A DNA stretch of 32,443 nt, taken from an uncultured bacterium. GTDB taxonomy: Bacteria > CAZDME01 > JAYEMH01. The stretch covers positions 1 to 32,443 of the forward strand of contig CAZDME010000010.1 of assembly GCA_964506785.1 (NCBI GenBank), in the 5' to 3' direction. Both the position numbers and the translations under genes were made by a program. A model generated the notes under the pieces. That model did no database searches and was not told the DNA's origin. It saw only the letters and a list, made by a program, of their open reading frames with translations. The first letter of the stretch is position 1, and every line of letters starts with the position of its first letter. Shown piece after piece: positions 5,338 through 16,351 of this stretch.

Positions 5338-5943
5338 CTACAGCCCAAACAATCCTTGGAAGCCCAGAAAAGTCAAAGCCAGGAGGCTGGCAGTTATAAA
5401 AATAATGGGATGCTCTTTAAATACATCCGGAATCGGCGCTAAAATTATTTTTTCCCGCAGGCTGGCAAAAATGACAATGACAACGGTATAGCCGACTCCG
5501 GTAGAAAAACTGTAAACCAGGGTTCTAAACAAACTCAGGGAATAATCTATGGAGAGAAAAGCCACCGCCAGAATCGCGCAGTTAGTCGTAATTAAAGGCA
5601 GATAAATACCCATGGCCTGGTAAAGCGCCGGGCTGAAGCGACGGATTACCATCTCTTCCAGCTGCACCAGGGTAGCAATGGCCAGGATAAATGAAGCTGT
5701 TCTAAGGAAAGTCAGGTCAAGGTGAAAGATTGAAGTTTCCGGGGCAAGGAGAAAATAATAGATTAACCACCCGGTTAAGGAGGCTATTACCATGACGAAG
5801 ATAACCGCCAGGCCCATTCCCAGCGAAGTTTTCATCTCTTTAGAAACGCCAAAAAAACCGCAGAGTCCCAGGAAACGCATTAAGAGGATGTTATTTATCA
5901 ATATGGCGTTTAAGGCAAGCAGGAAGATATTCAACTCATTCAT
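5338..5943 (-). CDS. rnfA: Rnf complex subunit A
   Basis: NNILL.RFLGLC and GIYLPLITTNCAIL motifs. Confidence 0.96.
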   Translation of the reverse strand: MNELNIFLLALNAILINNILLMRFLGLCGFFGVSKEMKTSLGMGLAVIFVMVIASLTGWLIYYFLLAPETSIFHLDLTFLRTASFILAIATLVQLEEMVIRRFSPALYQAMGIYLPLITTNCAILAVAFLSIDYSLSLFRTLVYSFSTGVGYTVVIVIFASLREKIILAPIPDVFKEHPIIFITASLLALTFLGFQGLFGL

Positions 5944-6563
5944 ATTATCGTTTTCCCTTTCAGGCGCTTAAGCCCGGCGATAAGAAAACCGATGGTCAAA
6001 AAAGCTCCGGGTGGTAAAATCATCAATGCTGCCGGGGAAAATCCGCTTCCCAGCAAATTTATTTTAAACGGCGGGATAAAAAGAAAAGGCGCCGGATTGG
6101 CAATTGCTCCGGTGCCCAGCACTTCTCTAATCAAACCGATAACCGAGATTGCCAATAAAAACCCTATTCCCATGCCCAAGCCGTCAATTAAAGAATTTAA
6201 AAGAGTATTTTTAGAAGCAAAGGCTTCGGCCCGTCCCAGGATGATACAGTTTACTACAATCAGGGGCACAAAAACCCCCAGTGATTTATAAAGCGAAGGT
6301 AGATAGGCATGCATGGTATAATCGGTTATAGTAACGAAAGTAGAGATAATAATGATAAATACCGGAATTCTAATCTGGCTGGGAATAATCCGCCGGATTA
6401 AGGAAATGGACATATTAGAACAGATTAAGACAAATATAGTGGCCAATCCCATCCCGAAGGCATCGCGGAGAGTCGTTGAGCAGGCAAGGATTGGGCAAAG
6501 GCCGATCATTAAAATCAAAACCGGATTTTCCCAAATAATTCCTCTTTTAAAAATATTTTTCAC
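5940..6563 (-). CDS. rnfE: Rnf complex subunit E
   Basis: ENPV...IGLCP.LA, PLIVVNCIILGRAE and LPPGAF motifs; GTG start. Confidence 0.96.
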   Translation of the reverse strand: MKNIFKRGIIWENPVLILMIGLCPILACSTTLRDAFGMGLATIFVLICSNMSISLIRRIIPSQIRIPVFIIIISTFVTITDYTMHAYLPSLYKSLGVFVPLIVVNCIILGRAEAFASKNTLLNSLIDGLGMGIGFLLAISVIGLIREVLGTGAIANPAPFLFIPPFKINLLGSGFSPAALMILPPGAFLTIGFLIAGLKRLKGKTII

Positions 6564-6589
6564 TTTCGCCTCTTACTTTCTATTTCTAC

Positions 6590-6629
6590 CCTGATCCCCT
6601 GATTACCCGATCTCCTGATTACCTGATCC
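6590..6629. repeat. Five tandem imperfect 8-mers (consensus CCTGATYM)
   Basis: cctgatcc cctgatta cccgatct cctgatta cctgatcc in the rnfG-rnfE intergenic region. Confidence 0.85.
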
Positions 6630-6663
6630 CAAAAACTTGCACCTCGTAGGTGCAAGTTTTTGG
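6629..6663. repeat. Perfect inverted repeat, 16-bp arms and 3-nt loop
   Basis: ccaaaaacttgcacct-cgt-aggtgcaagtttttgg. Confidence 0.9.
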
Positions 6664-6672
6664 TGCAAGGTT

Positions 6673-7227
6673 TTATTCGTTCTTTCTTAATTTTTCCTTT
6701 AAATTTTCCTCAAAAAATATTACCGCCTCTTTAAACCCTTTGGTAACCGCCCGGGAAGAGATGGTTGCCGAGGTCACCGCCTCGATTTTCCCTTGAGACG
6801 GTTCGTCCTTAATTAAGCCGAGTTCATCCTTATTTTTCCCTTTAAATTGCCCCAAAAAAACCGGCTCCAATATTTTCGCCCCTAACCCGGGAGTTTCATT
6901 TTGTTCTAAAATTTGAAAATTTGAAACCGTCCCGTCCAAATCCAGGCCGACTAACATTTTTATTTTTCCGCCGTAACCGGCGGCGCTTACGGGAATTATC
7001 ACTCCGATTAAATTTTCATCCGCGCCGAAAGCGAGAAAATACGGCTGCTTGCCGATTTTCCCCTCATCGAATCGTTCTCCTTCGAGAAATATTTTTTTAA
7101 GAAAATTATCTGCCCGGCTTTGGCCGGCAATTTTGTCTTTTGTCTGCCGAAAAACCTGGGCTAAACAAAAAGCCGAGATAAAGCAGATAATCCCTAAGAG
7201 TAAGCTGGTACGGATAATCTTAAGCAT
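6673..7227 (-). CDS. rnfG: Rnf complex subunit G (FMN-binding)
   Basis: GYGG.I, ETPGLG and FMN-attachment-like AVTSATISS motif; start placed at MLKII (7227), overlapping the rnfD stop. Confidence 0.94.
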   Translation of the reverse strand: MLKIIRTSLLLGIICFISAFCLAQVFRQTKDKIAGQSRADNFLKKIFLEGERFDEGKIGKQPYFLAFGADENLIGVIIPVSAAGYGGKIKMLVGLDLDGTVSNFQILEQNETPGLGAKILEPVFLGQFKGKNKDELGLIKDEPSQGKIEAVTSATISSRAVTKGFKEAVIFFEENLKEKLRKNE

Positions 7228-8179
7228 ATTTTCCCTTTCCAAAAAGGCGGGGCTGGGTATATCGTTCAATCAAAGGGGTAAGGGCATTCATGAAAAGAAT
7301 GGCAAACGCGACCCCCTCAGGGAAGCTACCCCAAAATCTGATTAAAGAGGTAACTAAACCGCAGCCGATGCCAAAGAAAATTTTTCCTCTGGGGGTAATG
7401 GGCGAAGTAACGTAATCAGTGGCCATAAAGATTGCCCCCAGCATTAAACCGCCGCTCAAAAGATTGAATAAGGCCGAACCGTGCCCGGGAAAAACCAGGC
7501 TCATAATAACTACCGTGCCTAAAAAACATCCGGGAATCCGCCAGGAAATTTGTCTTCTGAGGAGAAGATATAATCCGCCAAGGAGAAGACAAAAAGTCGA
7601 TGTTTCCCCTAAAGAGCCGCTGATATTTCCCCAGAAAAGGGCGCCATAATCAGGCAGTTTTTGGGCCGTCTCAGTTAAACCTTTGGCGATGGCTAAAGGC
7701 GTAGCCCCGGTTATTCCTTCAATAGCCGCTTTCCAGTTGGAGCGGGGTATCACCCATGTACTCATCTGGGCCGGCCAGGCAATATTCAAAACGGCCCGTC
7801 CGACTAGGGCCGGGTTAAAGAGGTTATACCCTAAGCCTCCGTAGATTTGCTTTCCCAGAATAATAGCCGTTGCCCCGCCAAAAAAACTCAGCCAGACCGG
7901 CAGTCCCGGCGGCAGACATAAAGCCAGAAGAATGCCGGTTAATAAGGCGCTGTTATCTTTGATAGAAACCGGCATTTTTCTGAGTTTCTGAAAAATAATT
8001 TCCGTTAAGAGTGTTGCCGAAACCGTGGACATTATTACTTTAACTGCCTGCCAGCCAAAAAAATAGATACTGGCGCAGACTGCCGGCAACAGGGCTAAAA
8101 TAACCTCCATCATAATAATTGGCGTTGTCAGCCGCGATTGAATATGAGGAGAAACGGAAACTAACAGTTTTTCTTTCAT
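7220..8179 (-). CDS. rnfD: Rnf complex subunit D
   Basis: SPHI, KQIYGGLGYNLFNPA, ITGATPL (FMN-Thr), GSLGETS and FMATDYVTSP motifs. Confidence 0.97.
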   Translation of the reverse strand: MKEKLLVSVSPHIQSRLTTPIIMMEVILALLPAVCASIYFFGWQAVKVIMSTVSATLLTEIIFQKLRKMPVSIKDNSALLTGILLALCLPPGLPVWLSFFGGATAIILGKQIYGGLGYNLFNPALVGRAVLNIAWPAQMSTWVIPRSNWKAAIEGITGATPLAIAKGLTETAQKLPDYGALFWGNISGSLGETSTFCLLLGGLYLLLRRQISWRIPGCFLGTVVIMSLVFPGHGSALFNLLSGGLMLGAIFMATDYVTSPITPRGKIFFGIGCGLVTSLIRFWGSFPEGVAFAILFMNALTPLIERYTQPRLFGKGKYA

Positions 8180-8215
8180 ATTAAAGAGACAGTTTTCGCC
8201 GGCATCTATTTTTTT

Positions 8216-9553
8216 CTATAGTTTATTTTTAAGTTTCGCCAGCTCACACTTGGCAAATTTAATCCAGTGCACCAAAGGAATACCCGAAGGGCAATTATAG
8301 GCGCAGGCCCCGCATTCCATACAATCACAGAGATGATACTCCTCTGTTTTCTCCCAGAGGTTATTGCGGGCAAAAAGAGCGATTTTATTAGGCATTAAGT
8401 TAACCGGACAAACCTCTGAACAGCGGCCGCATTGAATACAAGGAAACTCTTCTTTAGTCATGACCATTTCTTCGGAGAAGACCAAAATGCCCGAAGAACC
8501 CTTGATTATCGGTACATCTAAGGTATACTGGGCAAAACCCATCATCGGTCCGCCCATAATTATTTTTTTTGGTTCCTTTTTTAAGCCGCCGCTTTTATCG
8601 ATTAACTCCCGGACGGTAGTCCCGATTCTCACCCAGAAGTTCCCCGGGTTATTAACCGCTCCGTCTAAAGTAACCACCCGTTCGATTAGAGGCGTATCTT
8701 CATAAAAAGCCTGATAAACGGCATAAGCTGTCGCCGCGTTGCTGACAATTACCCCGACCTGATATGGGAATGTTCCCGAAGGAACTTCTCGATTTAAAAC
8801 TGCCTGTATCAACTGTTTCTCTGCTCCTTGAGGATATTTGACCTTTAAGACCACCACCTCCAAACCTGGCTCCTGTATGGTTATTTTTCGAAAGACCTTA
8901 ACCGCTTCCGGTTTATTTCCCTCGATGGCAATATAGCCTTTTTCCACTTCAACTGCCTGCATTAACAGTTTAAATCCTTTAACTATCTCCCGGGTTTTTT
9001 CCACCATTAATCGTTGGTCACAGGTCAGGTAGGGTTCGCATTCTGCTCCGTTTAGAATATAGGCATCGATTTTTTTATCTTTTGGGGGAGAAAGTTTTAT
9101 ATGCGTGGGAAAAGCCGCTCCGCCCAAACCGACAATTCCGTTTTCTTTGACAGTTTGAATAATTTCTTCCGGAGCCAAAGGCGACAAATCGGTTTTTGTT
9201 TCTTTTTGGAATAAATCAATTTCCCTCTCCTCGCTTTCAATAACCATTGCCTTTCCCTGGCCTTTAAGCGGGTGAGGCATCTCTTTTATCTGGGTAATTC
9301 GTCCCGTAATCGGGGCATGAATAGAGGCTGAACATTCCCCGGCCGATTCGGCAATTTTTGTCCCGGCCAAAACCTCATCCCCTGTTTTATATAAAGGCCG
9401 GGCAGATCTGCCCAGGTGTTGGTCTAAAGGAATAATTACCTTAGTCGGCAGAGGCAGACGCTCTATGGCTTTATTGGCGGTTTTAGCCTTAAAAGCCCGG
9501 GGAAGTTTTATTCCCCCCTTAAAACTTAAAAAATCACTGGTTTGGATAGCCAT
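8216..9553 (-). CDS. rnfC: Rnf complex subunit C
   Basis: GIVGLGGAAFPT, NGAECEPYLT.D, YPQGAEK, GGPMMG and two 4Fe-4S motifs. Confidence 0.98.
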   Translation of the reverse strand: MAIQTSDFLSFKGGIKLPRAFKAKTANKAIERLPLPTKVIIPLDQHLGRSARPLYKTGDEVLAGTKIAESAGECSASIHAPITGRITQIKEMPHPLKGQGKAMVIESEEREIDLFQKETKTDLSPLAPEEIIQTVKENGIVGLGGAAFPTHIKLSPPKDKKIDAYILNGAECEPYLTCDQRLMVEKTREIVKGFKLLMQAVEVEKGYIAIEGNKPEAVKVFRKITIQEPGLEVVVLKVKYPQGAEKQLIQAVLNREVPSGTFPYQVGVIVSNAATAYAVYQAFYEDTPLIERVVTLDGAVNNPGNFWVRIGTTVRELIDKSGGLKKEPKKIIMGGPMMGFAQYTLDVPIIKGSSGILVFSEEMVMTKEEFPCIQCGRCSEVCPVNLMPNKIALFARNNLWEKTEEYHLCDCMECGACAYNCPSGIPLVHWIKFAKCELAKLKNKL

Positions 9554-12291: not shown

Positions 12292-12753
12292 TCATCTCTC
12301 CTTTTCTTTCTTCAGTCCTTTTACCGCCTGCATAAATTCCGTTGCATCTTTGAATTGCCGGTAAACCGAGGCAAAGCGGACATAGGCTACCTGGTCAAGT
12401 TTTTTCAGCCGGTTCATTACCTCTTCGCCGATAGCACTGCTTTTAACCTCTTTTTCCAATTTATTTTCAAAAAAAATCTCGATATCGCTGATAATCCTTT
12501 CGATTTCTTCCGTACTAATCGGCCTTTTCTCGCAGGATTTTATGAGGCCCCCTTTTATCTTTGTCCGGTCAAAGGCCTCCCGGCGGCCGTCTTTTTTTAT
12601 GACCATTAAGGGGATTTTTTCTACATATTCATAGGTGGTATAACGTTTTAAGCACTGGGAGCATTCCCGGCGGCGGCGAACGGCTCTTCCTTCTTGAGCC
12701 AGGCGGGAGTCAATTACCTTGTCATTATCTTTTCCGCAATATGGACAGAGCAT
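12292..12753 (-). CDS. nrdR: Transcriptional repressor NrdR
   Basis: CPYC...VIDSR...RRRREC..C zinc ribbon, ATP-cone, VAYVRFASVYR; start placed at MLCPYC. Confidence 0.98.
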   Translation of the reverse strand: MLCPYCGKDNDKVIDSRLAQEGRAVRRRRECSQCLKRYTTYEYVEKIPLMVIKKDGRREAFDRTKIKGGLIKSCEKRPISTEEIERIISDIEIFFENKLEKEVKSSAIGEEVMNRLKKLDQVAYVRFASVYRQFKDATEFMQAVKGLKKEKER

Positions 12754-12837
12754 CTGGGACTCCCTCATTCCCCAAAATTACTTTTTGAACCCCTATCGGT
12801 GGGTTTTCCCATTAAAAACTACCAATTCAATGAGAAA

Positions 12838-12884
12838 CTACATTATCTTGTGGGGATTGTATCGTATCACACTAGATATAGATG
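12838..12884. promoter_or_regulatory. Tandem NrdR boxes
   Basis: ctaCAttATcTTGtgg (12838-12853) and acaCTAgATaTAGatg (12869-12884) match acaCwAtATaTwGtg; their starts are 31 bp apart, the typical tandem spacing. Confidence 0.85.
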
Positions 12885-12890
12885 TGTCAA
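12861..12890 (-). promoter_or_regulatory. sigma70 promoter of nrdR-nrdD
   Basis: TTGACA (12890-12885), 18 nt, then TACGAT with an extended TG; the spacer contains an NrdR box. Confidence 0.75.
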
Positions 12891-12916
12891 GAAAAAATTT
12901 TTTATTCCCAAAAAAA

Positions 12917-15382
12917 CTATTTTCCGGAAAGCGTCCTAAGTGTGTTTTCAAAATTGGCATATTCCGCTTCGATATTACCCGTCTCTATTGGCGCGATAGC
13001 AATAAATAATTCCGGTTTTAATTTCTTAAAAGGAAGCTTTAAATTTTCGACATAACCGCTCACCTCACACCAGTCCTTTTTATTTTTAACATCCAATCCT
13101 GCTTTCTCAAAGTATTTTCCCCATTCTAAATCGAATTTTGTCTTTAGCATATGGACACGGTCAAACCAAATCTCGCTTAAATGCGCTCTCCGGAAATCGC
13201 CCCAGTTTAAGATTACCCTTTGAAACTTGGTTTTCGATAAAATAGCGTTTCTAAAGCACGACGCTTCCAAACACATATCCCAAAAACGCGCTCCAGTGAG
13301 TATTGCCCCTTTGAAATTAGACCACCCTAAATAATTATTAGTCCACCTTAGATAATTAAATGCAAAAACAGATCGAGTTAAATAAACCCTTTCAAAGTCA
13401 AATGCCATTAAATCGAACATTCCAGAAAGCAAGTTAACATTAATTAAATTTTTTCTTTCTCCTTTAATAAATTTAGCCCATTCGGCGTTCTTGTTTTTTA
13501 AATCGCTTACTCTTTTCTGTTGAAGCTGGTCCCAATCTATAAATTTTAAACCTTTTAAATTTCCCTCTGAATCTAATTTTACTAAAACATTTTCATCATG
13601 TAACTCCGCATAGAAAAAGTTTTCTTCACCTCGCCGGTAAGTTTTCTTTATTGCCCGGTTAAGATTAACCCTTACCTCATCTAAATTTTTTATTTTGTTG
13701 TTTCCTAGCGCTTCCGATAAGGTCTGGTACCCTAAAGGAATTAAATTAAGCTCATAATGATATTTTTCTTGACCATCGATAAAAAATGTTGGACAGACCC
13801 AGCGGCCCTTTCGGCTGAAGAGCTCTTTCATGGCCATAATATCCGCCGTAACTTTGATTTTTTTTACAATTTGTAAACCATTTTTGTGTTCATAGACCCT
13901 AAATTTTTCTATTTTTTCATCTTTTTTTTCGGCTTTCTTAAAATTTTCAAGCCCATTCTTTTTTAAATCCCCTGCCAATTCAATCACCCTTTTATCTTCC
14001 CAGAGGTTTATCTCTTCTATGAGCTTCGGCTCTTCTATATTAATCGGTTCTTTTTCCTTGCCGGCGATGGCTTCTTTTAAACTGACCGCCATTGAATAGA
14101 CTTCTTTCATTCCTCCCCGGCTTTCGAAGATAACTATTGATATCTTTCTTTTTTCCGAAAGCCTCTCCAGGGCTTCCCGTTCTTTTGTTTTCCCTTTGAT
14201 AACACAAAGAATATCTTCTGTGTTAACACCCTTGGTTTCGGCAAATTCAATCAGGGCATTAATCTCATCTGCTTCGCTAAGATTGGCCGGGATTTCTCCT
14301 TCTTCCGGCCGGATTATCCCATCCGGGTTGATTCCTTTGATTTCCTTTGCCAGTTTTTCGACGACATCCCCTTTTACCGAATCCCCGGCGTAGATAATGA
14401 CCTTGTCCAGGGTTTTATTTTCTGTAAGCACCCCTAAACTCTCCTTTAAATCCAATACTGCCCCGTTATCCAATAAGGCCTCGGCAAAGATAATCGGTGT
14501 TTTCCCCGCCAGCCTCTTTTCCCGACAAACCTCATCAAGCTCTTTTAAACTTTTGTTATAATCTTTTACTTTTCCTTTTACTTCCGCCATAGCCGCTTTA
14601 AAATTATCAATTTTAATCTTCGCTTTAAATTTAGGTAAAAGCTCCCTAACCGTCCTATCCACTAATTCCATATTAAAAACTTTAGTCTCATCAGAAGCAT
14701 TTTTCCAATCCCACAACTTATTCCCTAACATCTCTCCCGCAATCTGTCTTACATATTGTGACGGGACGGTATAAGAATCTTCCAAAATAAAAACGAATTT
14801 TTTGCCTTCCTGATTCTCATAAAATAAATATCCTTCGTTAACCCCGATATGTTTTGATATCTCGTTTAAAGTATTTATAGGTTTATTCCTGCAGTGGCGA
14901 TTATCATTCAAAATTTTCAAAATCTCAAATTTTTTTGGGACAGGTACCGCATGTAAATGGGCATGAACAATTGAATTTCCCCCTTGATTCTTATTTTCTT
15001 CATCTAGTATTGTCGAACCGTGTTCAAAAAACACAACATCTTGGCCGTATATATCTTTCAGTATCTGCCTAAGATAAATTTTAAGGGCTTCTAACTCTGT
15101 TAATTGCGCCTCATCAAAACTAGCCATACAAAACACATGATCTTTGGTGGTAATTAAAAGATGTCCTGGCGCTAAAGGATTATAATCCGGCAATACCTTG
15201 AAATTATCTGTTTCAAATAATATTTTCGGATCATTGCATATTCTACATGAAGCTAATGTTTCTTCCCTTTCCAATATATTTTCTATTTTTTTTGTATCGG
15301 CGAGATGTTCTTTATTTGCTGCTGGACGTAAATAGGCATCCGGCTTTGCCTCTGCCAAATCCGTAAAGGTCAGATTAGACAA
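12917..15382 (-). CDS. Multidomain protein: HIT (Cwf19/CwfJ-like) nucleotide hydrolase, unknown domain, atypical protein-kinase-like domain and pentapeptide repeats. The true N-terminus probably lies upstream across a frameshift.
   Basis: CRIC...PLAPGHLLI...FFEHG...HAHLH (14965-14951)...SQYVR...WDWK; VKK...YAELHDENVLV...FIDWD; SNFKG AILTG ARFWD MCLEA SCFRN AILSK TKFQR repeats. Confidence 0.8.
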   Translation of the reverse strand: MSNLTFTDLAEAKPDAYLRPAANKEHLADTKKIENILEREETLASCRICNDPKILFETDNFKVLPDYNPLAPGHLLITTKDHVFCMASFDEAQLTELEALKIYLRQILKDIYGQDVVFFEHGSTILDEENKNQGGNSIVHAHLHAVPVPKKFEILKILNDNRHCRNKPINTLNEISKHIGVNEGYLFYENQEGKKFVFILEDSYTVPSQYVRQIAGEMLGNKLWDWKNASDETKVFNMELVDRTVRELLPKFKAKIKIDNFKAAMAEVKGKVKDYNKSLKELDEVCREKRLAGKTPIIFAEALLDNGAVLDLKESLGVLTENKTLDKVIIYAGDSVKGDVVEKLAKEIKGINPDGIIRPEEGEIPANLSEADEINALIEFAETKGVNTEDILCVIKGKTKEREALERLSEKRKISIVIFESRGGMKEVYSMAVSLKEAIAGKEKEPINIEEPKLIEEINLWEDKRVIELAGDLKKNGLENFKKAEKKDEKIEKFRVYEHKNGLQIVKKIKVTADIMAMKELFSRKGRWVCPTFFIDGQEKYHYELNLIPLGYQTLSEALGNNKIKNLDEVRVNLNRAIKKTYRRGEENFFYAELHDENVLVKLDSEGNLKGLKFIDWDQLQQKRVSDLKNKNAEWAKFIKGERKNLINVNLLSGMFDLMAFDFERVYLTRSVFAFNYLRWTNNYLGWSNFKGAILTGARFWDMCLEASCFRNAILSKTKFQRVILNWGDFRRAHLSEIWFDRVHMLKTKFDLEWGKYFEKAGLDVKNKKDWCEVSGYVENLKLPFKKLKPELFIAIAPIETGNIEAEYANFENTLRTLSGK

Positions 15383-15510
15383 AAAACCCCTATAACAACT
15401 GCCGAAGTTGCCTTTAGGAGCTTCTGTCTTAGTTTACGGTTCACCGTGTACAGTTTACAGTTATTCATCGAAATTAATATCCGCCCTGGATTAGGTCTCG
15501 CCTCACTCAT
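15370..15510 (-). CDS. Short ORF encoding the signal-peptide n/h region of the downstream multidomain gene (frameshifted 5' part)
   Basis: MSEARPNPGRILISMNNCKLYTVNRKLRQKLLKATSAVVIGVFCLI* (alternative ATG at 15468). One extra T in the T6 run at 15381-15386 fuses it in frame to ...IGVFLSNLTFTDLAEA-KPDAYLRP. Confidence 0.65.
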   Translation of the reverse strand: MSEARPNPGRILISMNNCKLYTVNRKLRQKLLKATSAVVIGVFCLI

Positions 15511-15566
15511 TTATTGCGCCTTTAGTCACGTCTATTTCAATGCGGGTTTGTAATTATAGAAATCCA

Positions 15567-15593
15567 ATTATAGGATATCCGATATCCTATAAT
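15567..15593. repeat. Palindrome with 13-bp arms and a 1-nt centre
   Basis: attataggatatc-c-gatatcctataat. Confidence 0.9.
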
Positions 15594-15689
15594 ATTTATC
15601 CCCTCTAGATTGTTTCTAAATCTAAGAGCTGGGGATTAATTCGCCCAGTGACTTATGTTTGCTGACGCTCCATAAGTTACGGGCTCATT

Positions 15690-15726
15690 AAAAAAAGCTG
15701 AATCACCTATTTCTAGGCAACTCAGC
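15690..15726 (-). terminator. Intrinsic terminator, expression platform of the riboswitch
   Basis: GCUGAGUUGCCUA-GAAA-UAGGUGAUUCAGC followed by U7; 13-bp stem with G-U pairs. Confidence 0.9.
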
Positions 15727-15795
15727 CATTCTTGCTTTCGGCAAGACCTGTAGTTTTGCGTCTCCGCCTTACGGCGGATTTGCCTTTATCTAGTA
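15712..15795 (-). ncRNA. Cyclic di-GMP-I (GEMM-I) riboswitch aptamer
   Basis: Minus strand CUAGAUAAA-GGCAAA-UCCGCC-GUAA-GGCGGA-GACGCAAA-ACUACAGGUCUUGC-CGAAA-GCAAGAAUGGCUGAG-UUGCC-UAG shows the GGCAAA, GNRA loop, GACGCAAA, GGUCU and UUGCC hallmarks. Confidence 0.92.
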
Positions 15796-15811
15796 AGTTA
15801 GCCTTTAAGAG

Positions 15812-15840
15812 AGTATAGCATATAAAGAAGGAAAAGTCAA
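15812..15840 (-). promoter_or_regulatory. sigma70 promoter driving the riboswitch leader
   Basis: TTGACT-17 nt-TATACT with an extended TG, just upstream of the aptamer. Confidence 0.8.
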
Positions 15841-15853
15841 AAAAGCACAAAAA

Positions 15854-16351
15854 TTAGCGTTTTTTTGATTTAGCTTTGGAAGGAAAATTCACCAATTTTA
15901 CCTCAACCTTGGCTTTCTTAAGGAAGGAAATTCCGTTCATCGGACGGTTTTCTTTAAGGCAGACCACCCGGCTTATACCGGCAGAAACCGCCATTTTGGC
16001 GCACAGGATACAGATTAAACCGTCAACATAAAGGGTTGCTCCTGCGGAGGAAATGCCAAACTTGGCACATTGAAAAAGCGCCGAGGCTTCCGCATGGGTG
16101 CAATTGCCTACTTCATATCGGGTGCCGCTTTCAACCCCTTGTGCCTCCCGCTCGCAATAGTTTAAATCGATGCAGTGCGCCCCGCCGGGGATACAGGTAC
16201 CGTTATAACCGGTAGCAATCACCCTTTTCCCCCGGACAACTACTGCCCCGACTTGTTTTCTCAGACAGGTGCTGCGCTTGGATACAAAACGGGCCATATC
16301 CAGGAAATATTCATCCCATGACGGCCTCTTTGAACTTTTCTTTTTCAGCAT
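15854..16351 (-). CDS. dCMP deaminase (ComEB/DCTD family)
   Basis: RPSWDEYF, RSTCLR.QVGAV, TGYNG, HAE and CILC zinc ligands. Confidence 0.93.
   Translation of the reverse strand: MLKKKSSKRPSWDEYFLDMARFVSKRSTCLRKQVGAVVVRGKRVIATGYNGTCIPGGAHCIDLNYCEREAQGVESGTRYEVGNCTHAEASALFQCAKFGISSAGATLYVDGLICILCAKMAVSAGISRVVCLKENRPMNGISFLKKAKVEVKLVNFPSKAKSKKR

Follow-up and report, generated by a model that had tools for sequence, protein, structure and literature searches.

A c-di-GMP riboswitch gene for a putatively exported modular HIT/kinase-like/pentapeptide protein with a polymorphic leader in a small-genome uncultured bacterium

The window, a stretch of 32,443 nucleotides from the 1.38-Mb genome of an uncultured bacterium, carries on its reverse strand a 3.1-kb insertion in which a promoter, a c-di-GMP-I riboswitch and a structured RNA leader precede a gene that is split in two by the length of a single T run. 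We consider it probable, at roughly 60%, that the locus encodes a modular protein which is induced by c-di-GMP and exported through the Sec pathway, and that it belongs to a lineage-specific gene set in which riboswitch, signal leader and cargo follow one another. The features listed in a preliminary description of the locus, namely the promoter, the GEMM-I aptamer with its overlapping terminator, the structured leader, a short open reading frame (ORF) and an 821-aa ORF, were all recovered. The designation of the unit as self-contained, on the other hand, stands for the promoter and riboswitch but not for the 3' end, where a terminator search was negative and the unit is not closed; the stop codon of the 821-aa ORF lies about 20 nt ahead of the nrdR promoter (12861-12890, reverse strand). 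The insertion separates the dCMP deaminase gene from nrdR, and in a relative (genome G002) that retains the order glyA, dCMP deaminase, nrdR and nrdD it is absent, with a mere 181-nt spacer in its place and the nrdR promoter, which marks the downstream edge of the insertion, preserved.

Results

A canonical c-di-GMP-I riboswitch with its own promoter

Transcription would begin from a sigma-70-type promoter at 15840-15812 (reverse strand), TTGACT-17 nt-TATACT with a TG before the -10 element, which scores 10/12 matches and leaves 19 nt between its end and the aptamer. No other of the 15 promoter-like sites in the interval 12700-16000 is better and, because shuffled sequences yield 9.3 +/- 2.9 such sites, it is the position of the promoter rather than the site count that is informative. 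The Rfam covariance-model search called for in the preliminary description places a canonical-type c-di-GMP-I (GEMM-I) aptamer at 15712-15793 (reverse strand), with 66.9 bits for RF01051 (GA 35). The c-di-GMP-I-GGC variant (RF03167) was also considered and rejected: its score passes (66.8 bits versus GA 59), but the window has an A where the variant consensus has a conserved pocket G within GACGCGAA, a residue that, on our reading of the consensus, would define the variant. In the same alignment the aptamer reads AAAGGCAAA ... GACGCAAAAC ... UUGCC and matches the ligand contacts of the canonical class, presumably G20, A47 and C92 if our assumed Vc2-structure numbering and its assignment to the window hold. 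All 15 GEMM-I matches in the genome exceed the RF01051 cut-off and all carry GGCAA and CGCAA, with tandem aptamers on contigs C7 and C55; the genome also encodes four GGDEF proteins as possible makers of the ligand.

The putative expression platform is an intrinsic terminator at 15689-15727 (reverse strand), composed of a 14-pair stem (15727-15696) and a run of seven T's, which overlaps the aptamer's 3' side by 16 nt and whose stem is present in the ligand-free minimum-energy fold. This overlap points to ON-switch logic. Without ligand, the hairpin and U run would terminate the transcript, while in the c-di-GMP-bound state the aptamer would sequester the 5' arm of the hairpin and allow RNA polymerase to read through. 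The proposal of a dedicated promoter and a c-di-GMP ON switch is thus borne out at the sequence level, which supports an ON-type riboswitch with a putative response to the dinucleotide. The RNA leader as a whole (15815-15360) folds at -142.5 kcal/mol (z = -6.6), a stability reached by none of 100 shuffles, and is composite. The first 118 nt after the aptamer (15594-15711, reverse strand), which comprise the terminator 3' arm and two hairpins, recur by blastn with 87-88% identity over 118-120 nt in the two paralogous riboswitch loci of contigs C1 and C2 and are followed in the 5' UTR by a dispersed REP-like palindrome (15567-15594), copies of which occur at 93-100% identity on nine other contigs, C5, C7, C15, C30, C52, C72 and C84 among them.

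A T run of variable length splits the export leader

The short ORF of 46 aa (15370-15510, reverse strand; alternative start ATG 15468) matches positions 3-29 of a leader profile built from paralogues (E 4.3e-9) and is closed by a TGA at 15372-15370, owing to the frameshift at a T6 run (15381-15386, reverse strand) that leaves the leader out of frame with the mature protein in the window. The second half of the leader, LSNLTFTDLAEA with its AEA signal-peptidase-type site (15347-15382, reverse strand), opens the 821-aa ORF (15382-12917, reverse strand, TTG start), whose residues 2-33 match profile positions 30-60 (E 2.8e-6); the read-through with an X at the break scores E 7.5e-19. Because the profile matches on either side of the break, the two ORFs constitute one gene, and the earlier suggestion that the short signal-like ORF belongs to the large one is confirmed by these matches and by an intact T7 allele. 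DNA homology to the paralogue on contig C4 starts at 15469, paralogues show ARA or AWA where the window has AEA, and 3/3 leader-bearing ORFs of the genome lie behind a GEMM-I aptamer.

The intact allele occurs in other natural contigs, where a T7 run restores a single 864-aa frame. T7 is found in X5 (depth 7.4) and L038, and T6 in the window, X1 (depth 10), X3 and X4 (3.5) and L039; these lengths are those of assembled metagenome contigs of depth 3.5-10, not of raw reads, and some of the sequencing runs may duplicate one data set or be what the window was derived from. Over 12800-15900, X5 differs from the window by one added base at the T run and at no other position, and the run is likewise the sole difference among all T6 and T7 contigs; L038 reads stop-free over 6534-9128 to encode an intact 864-aa protein (P0152). 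The length of the T run, which varies between natural samples, is therefore what decides whether the protein keeps its putative export signal.

On inspection the T7-allele leader looks like a cleavable Sec signal peptide, with a basic n-region, a hydrophobic core and small residues at -3 and -1: P0152 has six K/R before a VVIGVF core, AEA at 53-55 and a best 12-residue window of hydropathy 1.98. Translation of this allele would start at ATG 15510 or 15468 to yield an 864- or 850-aa preprotein with n-region KLYTVNRKLRQKLLK, core ATSAVVIGVFLSNLTF and predicted cleavage at AEA. The flanking charges, +6 on the N side and about -1 past the core, would place the C-terminal bulk outside according to the positive-inside rule. 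In the T6 allele of the window the leader would be severed after 46 aa, and for this reason the T run may provide a further, heritable switch between on and off (or between exported and not exported), unless it marks a recent inactivating mutation.

Domain architecture of the cargo

The predicted mature protein begins with a HIT/CwfJ-C-like domain (aa 45-254; 14621-15250, reverse strand) that carries a CxxC and the motif HAHLHAV, exceeds the Pfam cut-offs for HIT (29.0 versus 21.5 bits) and CwfJ_C_1, and also matches DcpS_C. The best match of its family profile (A5) is the CWF19L1 C-terminus (E 3.8e-13 over 165 positions), followed by Hint and Fhit; HAHLHAV aligns to the Hint1 triad with HxHxH intact, and across 33 sequences H101, H103 and H105 show little or no variation. 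A lineage-specific alpha/beta domain, here termed MID, follows (aa 255-445; 14048-14620, reverse strand; AF2 pLDDT 87.6) and forms the C-terminal end in the related proteins examined.

The protein-kinase-like domain (aa 447-680; 13343-14044, reverse strand; AF2 pLDDT 80.9) has no Pfam match in the 821-aa protein itself, and its assignment rests on homologues, which match EcKL at 1e-7 to 7e-9, and on a fold search in which a two-domain query retrieved IRE1, CaMKII, Wee1 and LicA with probability 1.0 but with E about 1e-3 and TM 0.24-0.31. The catalytic Asp of the kinase motif H-x-D-x4-N is replaced by Glu in the window (YAELHDEN), with IDW retained; across the 24 modules found, this position is His in 20, Asp in two, Glu in the window alone and Leu in one, and the catalytic-loop Asn and metal-binding Asp are kept (N152, I169 and D170 invariant in 14 sequences). 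The C-terminal part (12920-13342, reverse strand) consists of a pentapeptide-repeat region (aa 681-780; PF00805, 22.7 bits versus cut-off 20.2) with a conserved CEV cap and a 41-aa tail, and regular short strands at 204-300 of the AF2 model predict a right-handed beta-helix. In the fold search proposed in the preliminary description, the beta-helix matched NleL, Rfr, MfpA and QnrB1 (E 2.5e-4 to 7e-4), the kinase-like part gave the matches above, and MID had no specific match among PDB folds (TM <= 0.43).

The exported part would accordingly combine a HIT/CwfJ-C nucleotide hydrolase or transferase, an alpha/beta domain, an Asp-less kinase-like domain and a pentapeptide beta-helix. This architecture had been put forward as not recognised from any description, and it is indeed unmatched as a whole: among 1.84 billion representative proteins none other than the protein itself shows it in full, the nearest case, P0010, touching all modules but covering HIT incompletely.

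Recurrence of the design and evidence on export

The support for export of the T7-allele protein comes from sequence comparison. In a further genome, G001, three ORFs (1853, 967 and 2391 aa) share the leader and a C-terminal MID and have an aptamer match 150-471 nt upstream; in G002, 0/2 MID ORFs lie behind an aptamer. A hydropathy rule assigns signal-like N-termini to 15 of 25 kinase-pentapeptide proteins and to five of eight MID proteins. The preliminary description had named ordinary cytoplasmic homologues as evidence against its reading, and these were found in part: by the same kind of crude rule, a signal-like N-terminus is absent from 112 of 116 HIT-only homologues and present in four, among them the closest, P0005 (48% identity). 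Signal peptidase I, three secretins and a TolC-like protein are encoded in the genome. It also counts against this reading that HIT and kinase-like domains require nucleotides, which are scarce outside the cytoplasm, and that the window carries the broken T6 allele.

The likeness to Omnitrophota proposed earlier is corroborated, as the kinase-pentapeptide module is found in Omnitrophota proteins of 1,700 to 18,735 aa, a riboswitch of this type preceding two of them. The design thus recurs in two Omnitrophota genomes, where loci L037 and L043 both combine a promoter, GEMM-I aptamer, overlapping terminator, signal-like leader and kinase-pentapeptide ORF; the larger ORFs (3686 to 18735 aa), four of the six examined, have no aptamer on their contig.

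Discussion

Several alternatives bear on the split gene. The 821-aa product could start at TTG 15382 and stay in the cytoplasm, the 46-aa ORF being a separate leader peptide, as might be suggested by an AGGGG 4 nt upstream of the TTG, by the gene callers' choice of an 821-aa protein (cluster P0001, four member sequences on two contigs) and by the mostly leaderless HIT homologues; we regard this as very unlikely, as the ORF itself begins with the second half of the export leader, has no ATG before residue 85 and is fused to the 46-aa ORF in the T7 allele. Least probable of all is programmed -1 slippage on the T6 mRNA at GTT TTT T, producing the T7-type full-length protein at a set ratio: a tRNA-Phe that moved back one base on the U run would re-pair perfectly and give the exact T7 protein sequence, but in the zero frame the site does not have the canonical X XXY YYZ form and the paralogues on C4 and C2 have their leaders in frame with no shift needed. 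A recently inserted paralogue in decay, turned into a pseudogene here by the loss of one T, would make the polymorphism an ordinary mutation and no switch. T6 is found in more assemblies than T7 (the window, X1, X3, X4 and L039 versus X5 and L038), the insertion is missing from G002, and a run of seven is short for a classical contingency tract. However, the 821-aa frame bears no other lesion, and the otherwise complete identity of T6 and T7 contigs across the 3.1-kb unit means that the change is very recent or recurrent; moreover, the break falls in the one homopolymer of the leader, the kind of site in which reversible switches of surface proteins reside. We find decay improbable.

A different question is where an exported protein would act. 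An effector that enters host or prey cells upon attachment, and there finds nucleotides for its HIT and kinase-like domains, would be in keeping with cytoplasm-type domains behind an export signal, a small genome and a beta-helix that resembles injected effectors, with NleL as the top Foldseek match and PipB and PipB2 models matching a homologue (P0036) below their cut-offs; related modules occur in the Omnitrophota giant proteins, which are tied to predation in the accessible text of a preprint (West-Roberts 2023, 10.1101/2023.11.21.568195). Secretins and a TolC-like protein, however, permit secretion rather than delivery into another cell, the kinase-like domain lacks its catalytic Asp, and the evidence fits a surface or periplasmic protein equally, such that we view delivery as doubtful.

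The preferred reading of a c-di-GMP-induced exported protein has precedents in Firmicutes, where c-di-GMP-I riboswitches precede genes for surface or secreted proteins such as the adhesins and Pro-Pro endopeptidase of Clostridioides difficile and, in Bacillus thuringiensis, where the riboswitch is Bc2, Cap/CbpA, a collagen adhesin (PMC6200980, PMC8610288, PMC4933901, PMC7423583). As in these systems, a canonical GEMM-I element lies in the 5' UTR of a gene with a (here putative) signal peptide, and c-di-GMP would couple expression to a surface-associated state. In contrast, the cargo is HIT, kinase-like and pentapeptide modules where the Firmicutes have adhesins or a protease, the organism is uncultured, small in genome and equipped with outer-membrane components, riboswitch and leader are reused in the lineage as a cassette before varied cargoes, which suggests regulon growth by cassette duplication, and the leader contains a polymorphic T run. 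The T6/T7 contigs present a slippage-prone 5' coding tract with both lengths in nature, as contingency loci do, and so may add a second layer of control. The opa genes of Neisseria encode phase-variable surface proteins, and their signal-peptide coding region contains a repeat tract; here too, tract length in a slippage-prone leader would determine whether the exported protein is produced, and both lengths exist in nature, although the run described here has just six or seven T's and is known from metagenome contigs alone.

Among individual modules, the CwfJ_C_1 and HIT matches with intact HxHxH recall CWF19L1/Drn1 (CwfJ_C_1/CwfJ_C_2) and Hint/Fhit, but known CWF19L1/Drn1-type members are eukaryotic nuclear or cytoplasmic proteins, whereas this domain stands behind an export leader; its bacterial relatives of 200-240 aa are unnamed in NCBIfam. 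The predicted right-handed beta-helix is shared with the type III effectors NleL, PipB and PipB2 and the DNA mimics MfpA and Qnr, yet the repeats here are short, degenerate (22.7 bits) and set in a fixed kinase-like fusion ending in the CEV cap (alignment A4), and the protein showed no membership of the Qnr, MfpA or PipB sequence models.

Neither Omnitrophota nor their relatives are in culture, and the many-domain proteins that they export, suspected to serve as weapons or for attachment, have had no regulation described so far. In the accessible text of two sources (10.1101/2023.11.21.568195; 10.64898/2026.06.07.730766), the giant proteins start with a signal or anchor and continue with numerous enzyme domains of cytoplasmic type, those named including HIT, NUDIX, kinase and HATPase_c, and the terms 'riboswitch', 'c-di-GMP' and 'pentapeptide' each occur zero times; the same text of West-Roberts et al. 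2023 (10.1101/2023.11.21.568195) gives no protein of at least 5,000 aa in 34 Ratteibacteria genomes. The locus would link such proteins to a defined signal, c-di-GMP, through a canonical riboswitch. More speculatively, and in our estimate with the odds clearly against it, c-di-GMP riboswitches could be the master switch of an exported arsenal with cytoplasm-type enzyme domains in PVC-related small-genome bacteria, including this lineage and Omnitrophota, with the kinase-like 'HGH'-pentapeptide module and exported CwfJ/HIT as previously undescribed classes of secreted effectors that act on nucleotides within or at the surface of a partner cell, and with the T run adding stochastic on/off control, so that expression is gated by both signal and phase. 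Were export disproved, what remained would be an ordinary riboswitch ahead of an orphan protein. Like the Omnitrophota giants, the window protein joins an export-type N-terminus to cytoplasm-type domains and the kinase-pentapeptide module, but with merely 864 aa it offers in compact form modules that elsewhere are embedded in proteins as long as 18,735 aa, and so brings HIT, MID and the kinase-pentapeptide module within practical reach of expression and assay.

One putative export leader divided by a T run

We read the unit, with a probability of roughly 0.6, as encoding a Sec-exported modular protein switched on by c-di-GMP, whose leader is detached in the window allele by natural variation in a T6/T7 run. 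The preliminary description had listed a signal-peptide-like ORF and an 821-aa multidomain ORF, and both are present on the minus strand: ORF46 (46 aa, 15510-15370) encodes the signal-like first half of an export leader and overlaps, at GGGGTTTTTTG, ORF821 (821 aa, 15382-12917), which has a TTG start and no ATG before residue 85. The two prove to be halves of one gene when compared with a profile built from five database leaders and from those of two genes on contigs C4 and C2 of the window's genome, both of which lie behind c-di-GMP aptamers and begin KLYTVNRK..LLKA.S.VVIGAFLFN..DFARAEA..LRP. Positions 3-29 of the profile align with ORF46 (E 4.3e-9) and positions 30-60 with the beginning of ORF821 (E 2.8e-6), and when the two are read through with an X at the break the match is a single block (E 7.5e-19). 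What separates the two frames is the loss of one T.

Both run lengths are found in metagenome contigs. Locus L038 carries T7 and locus L039 carries T6; over 9,245 nt they differ by one substitution and the T-run indel, and inside the unit they are otherwise identical to the window. L038:6534-9128 encodes an uninterrupted 864-aa protein, P0152. Among contigs assembled from sequencing runs, that of X5 (depth 7.4) shows no substitutions over 12800-15900 and one extra base at the T run, and T6 is carried by the X1 contig (depth 10) and by the X3 and X4 contigs (3.5). This run-length evidence comes from assemblies rather than reads; X3 and X4 seem to share a data set, and some of the runs may be the window's own source. 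Over 14880-15500 the assemblies of X1, X3 and X4 are fragmented into short contigs whose depth is about half that of the flanks, and a single X5 contig spans the stretch; the depth dips may reflect strain bubbles, or co-existing alleles, around the T run.

A c-di-GMP-I riboswitch with the layout of an ON switch

The promoter and the GEMM-I aptamer overlapping a terminator, as noted in the preliminary description, are all present on the minus strand. The near-consensus promoter (TTGACT-17 nt-TATACT, with TG before the -10 box; 15840-15812) is followed after 19 nt by an 82-nt Rfam match to the c-di-GMP-I clan (15793-15712), and the terminator, a 14-pair hairpin then seven T's (15727-15696), has 16 nt in common with the 3' side of the aptamer. 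The top-ranked Rfam model is the GGC variant (66.8 bits, cut-off 59), and with the canonical model RF01051 the score is 66.9 bits (cut-off 35). Where the variant consensus has its conserved G in GACGCGAA, the window aligns an A, and given this A and the equal RF01051 score we read the aptamer as an ordinary c-di-GMP sensor. Identity with the GGC variant was dropped on the same score and on a canonical pocket position, with aptamer positions mapped to what we take to be G20, A47 and C92 of the Vc2 structure.

The terminator hairpin is present in the computed minimum-energy fold without ligand. A ligand-bound aptamer would withhold the terminator's 5' arm and turn the gene ON, in keeping with the overlap between terminator and aptamer 3' side, an arrangement usual for ON switches. 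This RNA adds a member to a known class, and the regulatory idea is likewise known.

Shuffled versions of 15815-15360 (456 nt) fold far less well than the native sequence (z = -6.6; 0 of 100 shuffles as good). This leader RNA is composite: for 118 nt past the aptamer it is 87-88% identical to the corresponding segment of riboswitch loci on C1 and C2, and a palindrome in the 5' UTR, TATTATAGGATATCGGATATCCTATAAT (15594-15567), has near-identical copies on nine other contigs and probably represents a REP-type hairpin family. Within 12700-16000 no Rfam family besides the aptamer is matched at E <= 1, and the leader hairpins thus do not correspond to a described RNA.

A shared putative export leader

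In P0152, six K/R residues precede the core ATSAVVIGVFLSNLTF, which is moderately hydrophobic (hydropathy 1.98 for the best window of 12 residues) and too short for a typical membrane helix, and AEA stands at residues 53-55, where relatives carry ARA or AWA. Candidate starts are ATG 15510 and ATG 15468, and DNA homology to the C4 paralogue begins at 15469. The positive-inside rule allows a protein to be oriented from its flanking charges, and by this rule the charge balance of the leader places the C-terminal bulk outside. The genome encodes signal peptidase I, three secretins and a riboswitch-controlled TolC-like protein, so it has both an outer membrane and ways of crossing it. On the basis of such inspection and of comparison with relatives, we infer that P0152 is exported.

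All three ORFs with a P0152-type leader in the window's genome follow a c-di-GMP aptamer, and in G001, a genome from a different genus in the family, three ORFs (1853, 967 and 2391 aa) share both the leader and a C-terminal MID, a lineage-specific alpha/beta domain, with an aptamer match 150-471 nt upstream (two of the three just below cut-off, at 34.1 and 32.3 bits). Across MID-bearing ORFs, an aptamer lies upstream of the one assessable case in the window's genome, of three of five in G001 and of neither of the two in the related genome G002.

Six to ten residues past the predicted signal-peptidase site lies a motif, (F/Y/N/T)LR(P/Q/V/G), represented in the window by AYLRPAA (15314-15334; aa 17-23 of ORF821), which recurs in paralogues on C4, C2, C29 and C27, among the G001 ORFs and in the database relatives P0005, P0025, P0029, P0042, P0044, P0049 and P0067, and may be a secondary sorting signal. 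The codons for KLYTVNRKL (15430-15466) form a degenerate 7-nt array (ACTGTAA/ACTGTAC/ACGGTGA/ACCGTAA), and a non-coding spacer on C59 (about 5456-5488) is 91% identical to this stretch; this part of the leader, its n-region, may derive from heptamer repeats found between genes of the genome, or translation may in truth begin downstream of it.

Modules of the encoded protein

In word-based searches the whole protein matched itself only, and residues 447-821 gave no match among shorter proteins. The modules became visible only in an exhaustive HMMER search across 1.84 billion representatives; this gave 2,415 matches at E <= 1e-3, of which the best 150 were listed. The HIT / kinase-like / pentapeptide architecture proposed earlier has no other full match among these 150: full coverage of all modules is confined to the protein itself, and P0010 touches all of them with the HIT module covered in part. 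The matches delimit three modules (residues 45-254, 255-445 and 447-780).

The first module matches Pfam HIT (29.0 bits) and CwfJ_C_1 (29.8 bits), with a sub-threshold HinT match as the only NCBIfam result, and holds a His triad, HAHLHAV, and a CxxC. With a profile of 33 HIT sequences the top match is the C-terminus of CWF19L1 (E 3.8e-13, 165 positions), followed by Hint and Fhit proteins. The module stands alone in 116 of the best 150 matches, mostly proteins of 200-240 aa, and by a crude hydropathy rule four of these 116 have a signal-like start, including P0005, the closest relative among the matches listed (48% identity).

MID (residues 255-445) is common to a paralogue on C38 and to large G001 and G002 ORFs; it occupies the C-terminal end in the 11 related proteins in which it was placed and is internal in the window's protein. 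Its AlphaFold model is confident (pLDDT 87.6), but Foldseek returned only generic Rossmann-like matches (E >= 3.4e-3, TM <= 0.43), so we assign it no function; the ESM Atlas gave no usable match.

Residues 447-780 form a fixed kinase-like plus pentapeptide module, found as one copy or as tandem copies in proteins as long as 6,375 aa among the HMMER matches listed and in ORFs of up to 18,735 aa in Omnitrophota genomes. Its homologues match the EcKL kinase family and Pentapeptide, and its model (pLDDT 80.9) retrieves, at E about 1e-3, the beta-helices NleL, Rfr, MfpA and Qnr and protein kinases or LicA. The family has HGHLHxxN as its catalytic loop and the window YAELHDEN. Neither the loop Asn nor the IDW Asp varies, and the position of the canonical Asp holds His in 20 of 24 modules, Asp in two, Glu in one (the window) and Leu in one. 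The modelled fold is kinase-like; with the canonical Asp missing, ordinary phosphotransfer is doubtful. Across P0002-P0132 a fixed HGHLHxxN...IIDW is followed by pentapeptide repeats and a CEVTSP-type cap, the modules often standing in tandem and beside HATPase_c, and by their sequences they look like an undescribed domain family.

The same design in Omnitrophota

Searching with the kinase-pentapeptide alignment identified a single GTDB-representative locus, L037, in a MAG titled Candidatus Omnitrophota, and two loci in metagenome contigs, both copies of the window's locus. At L037, an aptamer (52.9 bits) with an overlapping terminator is separated by 100 nt from a downstream ORF (at least 705 aa) that combines a signal-like leader with the kinase-pentapeptide module. 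Of 301 sampled Omnitrophota genomes, 19 matched at E <= 1e-10, about eight of them carrying the kinase part. Among six kinase-bearing ORFs checked, two have an aptamer directly upstream, namely that of at least 705 aa and one of 1707 aa (L043) with promoter, aptamer, overlapping terminator and signal-like leader; the contigs of the other four (3686, 3770, 5508 and 12679/18735 aa, the last two being one class) carry none. With 3-16 aptamers in each of these genomes, two of six is, in this small sample, well above the expectation for a random gene. The likeness to Omnitrophota modular proteins suggested in the preliminary description is thus borne out by the riboswitch-leader-module design of L037 and L043.

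That c-di-GMP riboswitches precede genes for secreted or surface proteins is established for C. difficile and B. thuringiensis (PMC6200980, PMC8610288, PMC4933901, PMC7423583). Two Omnitrophota preprints describe signal- or membrane-anchored proteins rich in cytoplasm-type domains, HIT, NUDIX and kinases among them, and propose that they act in predation, and the words riboswitch, c-di-GMP and pentapeptide are absent from the available portions of both (10.1101/2023.11.21.568195, 10.64898/2026.06.07.730766). Relative to those portions, the cargo modules, the reuse of a riboswitch plus leader cassette, the Omnitrophota-type link and the polymorphic T run are not described.

Insertion upstream of nrdR and alternative readings

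G002 carries glyA, dCMP deaminase, nrdR and nrdD in the same order (76-87% protein identity) with a deaminase-nrdR gap of 181 nt only, which identifies the 3.1-kb unit as an insertion. The unit had been called self-contained, and it does have its own promoter and riboswitch; its 3' end, however, is open to possible read-through, the stop codon lying about 20 nt ahead of the conserved nrdR promoter with no terminator between the ORF821 stop and nrdR (12769-12919), so the unit is not fully self-contained. Read-through dependent on c-di-GMP could add to transcription of nrdR-nrdD (anaerobic ribonucleotide reductase). Both insertion edges (12891-12919 and 15835-15853) consist of a T-rich run plus TTGAC, which serves as the -35 box both in the unit's promoter and in that of nrdR, and the undisturbed spacer of G002 has a single T-rich TTGAC box; the twin edges could represent a duplicated target, microhomology or chance in T-rich DNA.

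The main sober alternative, which we consider improbable, is that the unit is a recent insertion undergoing simple decay. As to the preliminary description, its observation is confirmed and its interpretation is partly supported; the part of it that proposes an effector delivered into a host cell we regard as similarly unlikely, and we retain the reading of an exported modular protein under c-di-GMP control.

A dense riboswitch regulon

The window's genome (1.38 Mb, 112 contigs, 91% complete) contains 15 aptamers above the RF01051 cut-off, including two tandem pairs (e.g. C7:27613-27884, C55:7533-7730), and four GGDEF genes. G001 and G002 have seven and three aptamers above cut-off, and Omnitrophota genomes G328 (about 1.5 Mb), G246 and G299 have 16, 11 and 11 matches; these lineages, all with small genomes, seem to be characterised by very high riboswitch density. 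Genes behind the aptamers of the window's genome encode mostly envelope or exported products: a >1,864-aa protein with a C39 peptidase domain, a TolC-like OEP with TPR repeats, a family-4 glycosyltransferase, a >1,512-aa DUF2341/LamG protein and orphan proteins with signal-like starts. At C1:50703-52383 (L010, L026), a riboswitch with the shared leader RNA is followed by a DUF1015 protein without a signal-like start, apparently the regulon's single cytoplasmic member, and then by an 844-aa TPR protein with a signal peptide. At C38:12719-13207 (L002), a paralogue with TPR and a C-terminal MID, its 5' end cut by the contig end, adjoins hrcA.
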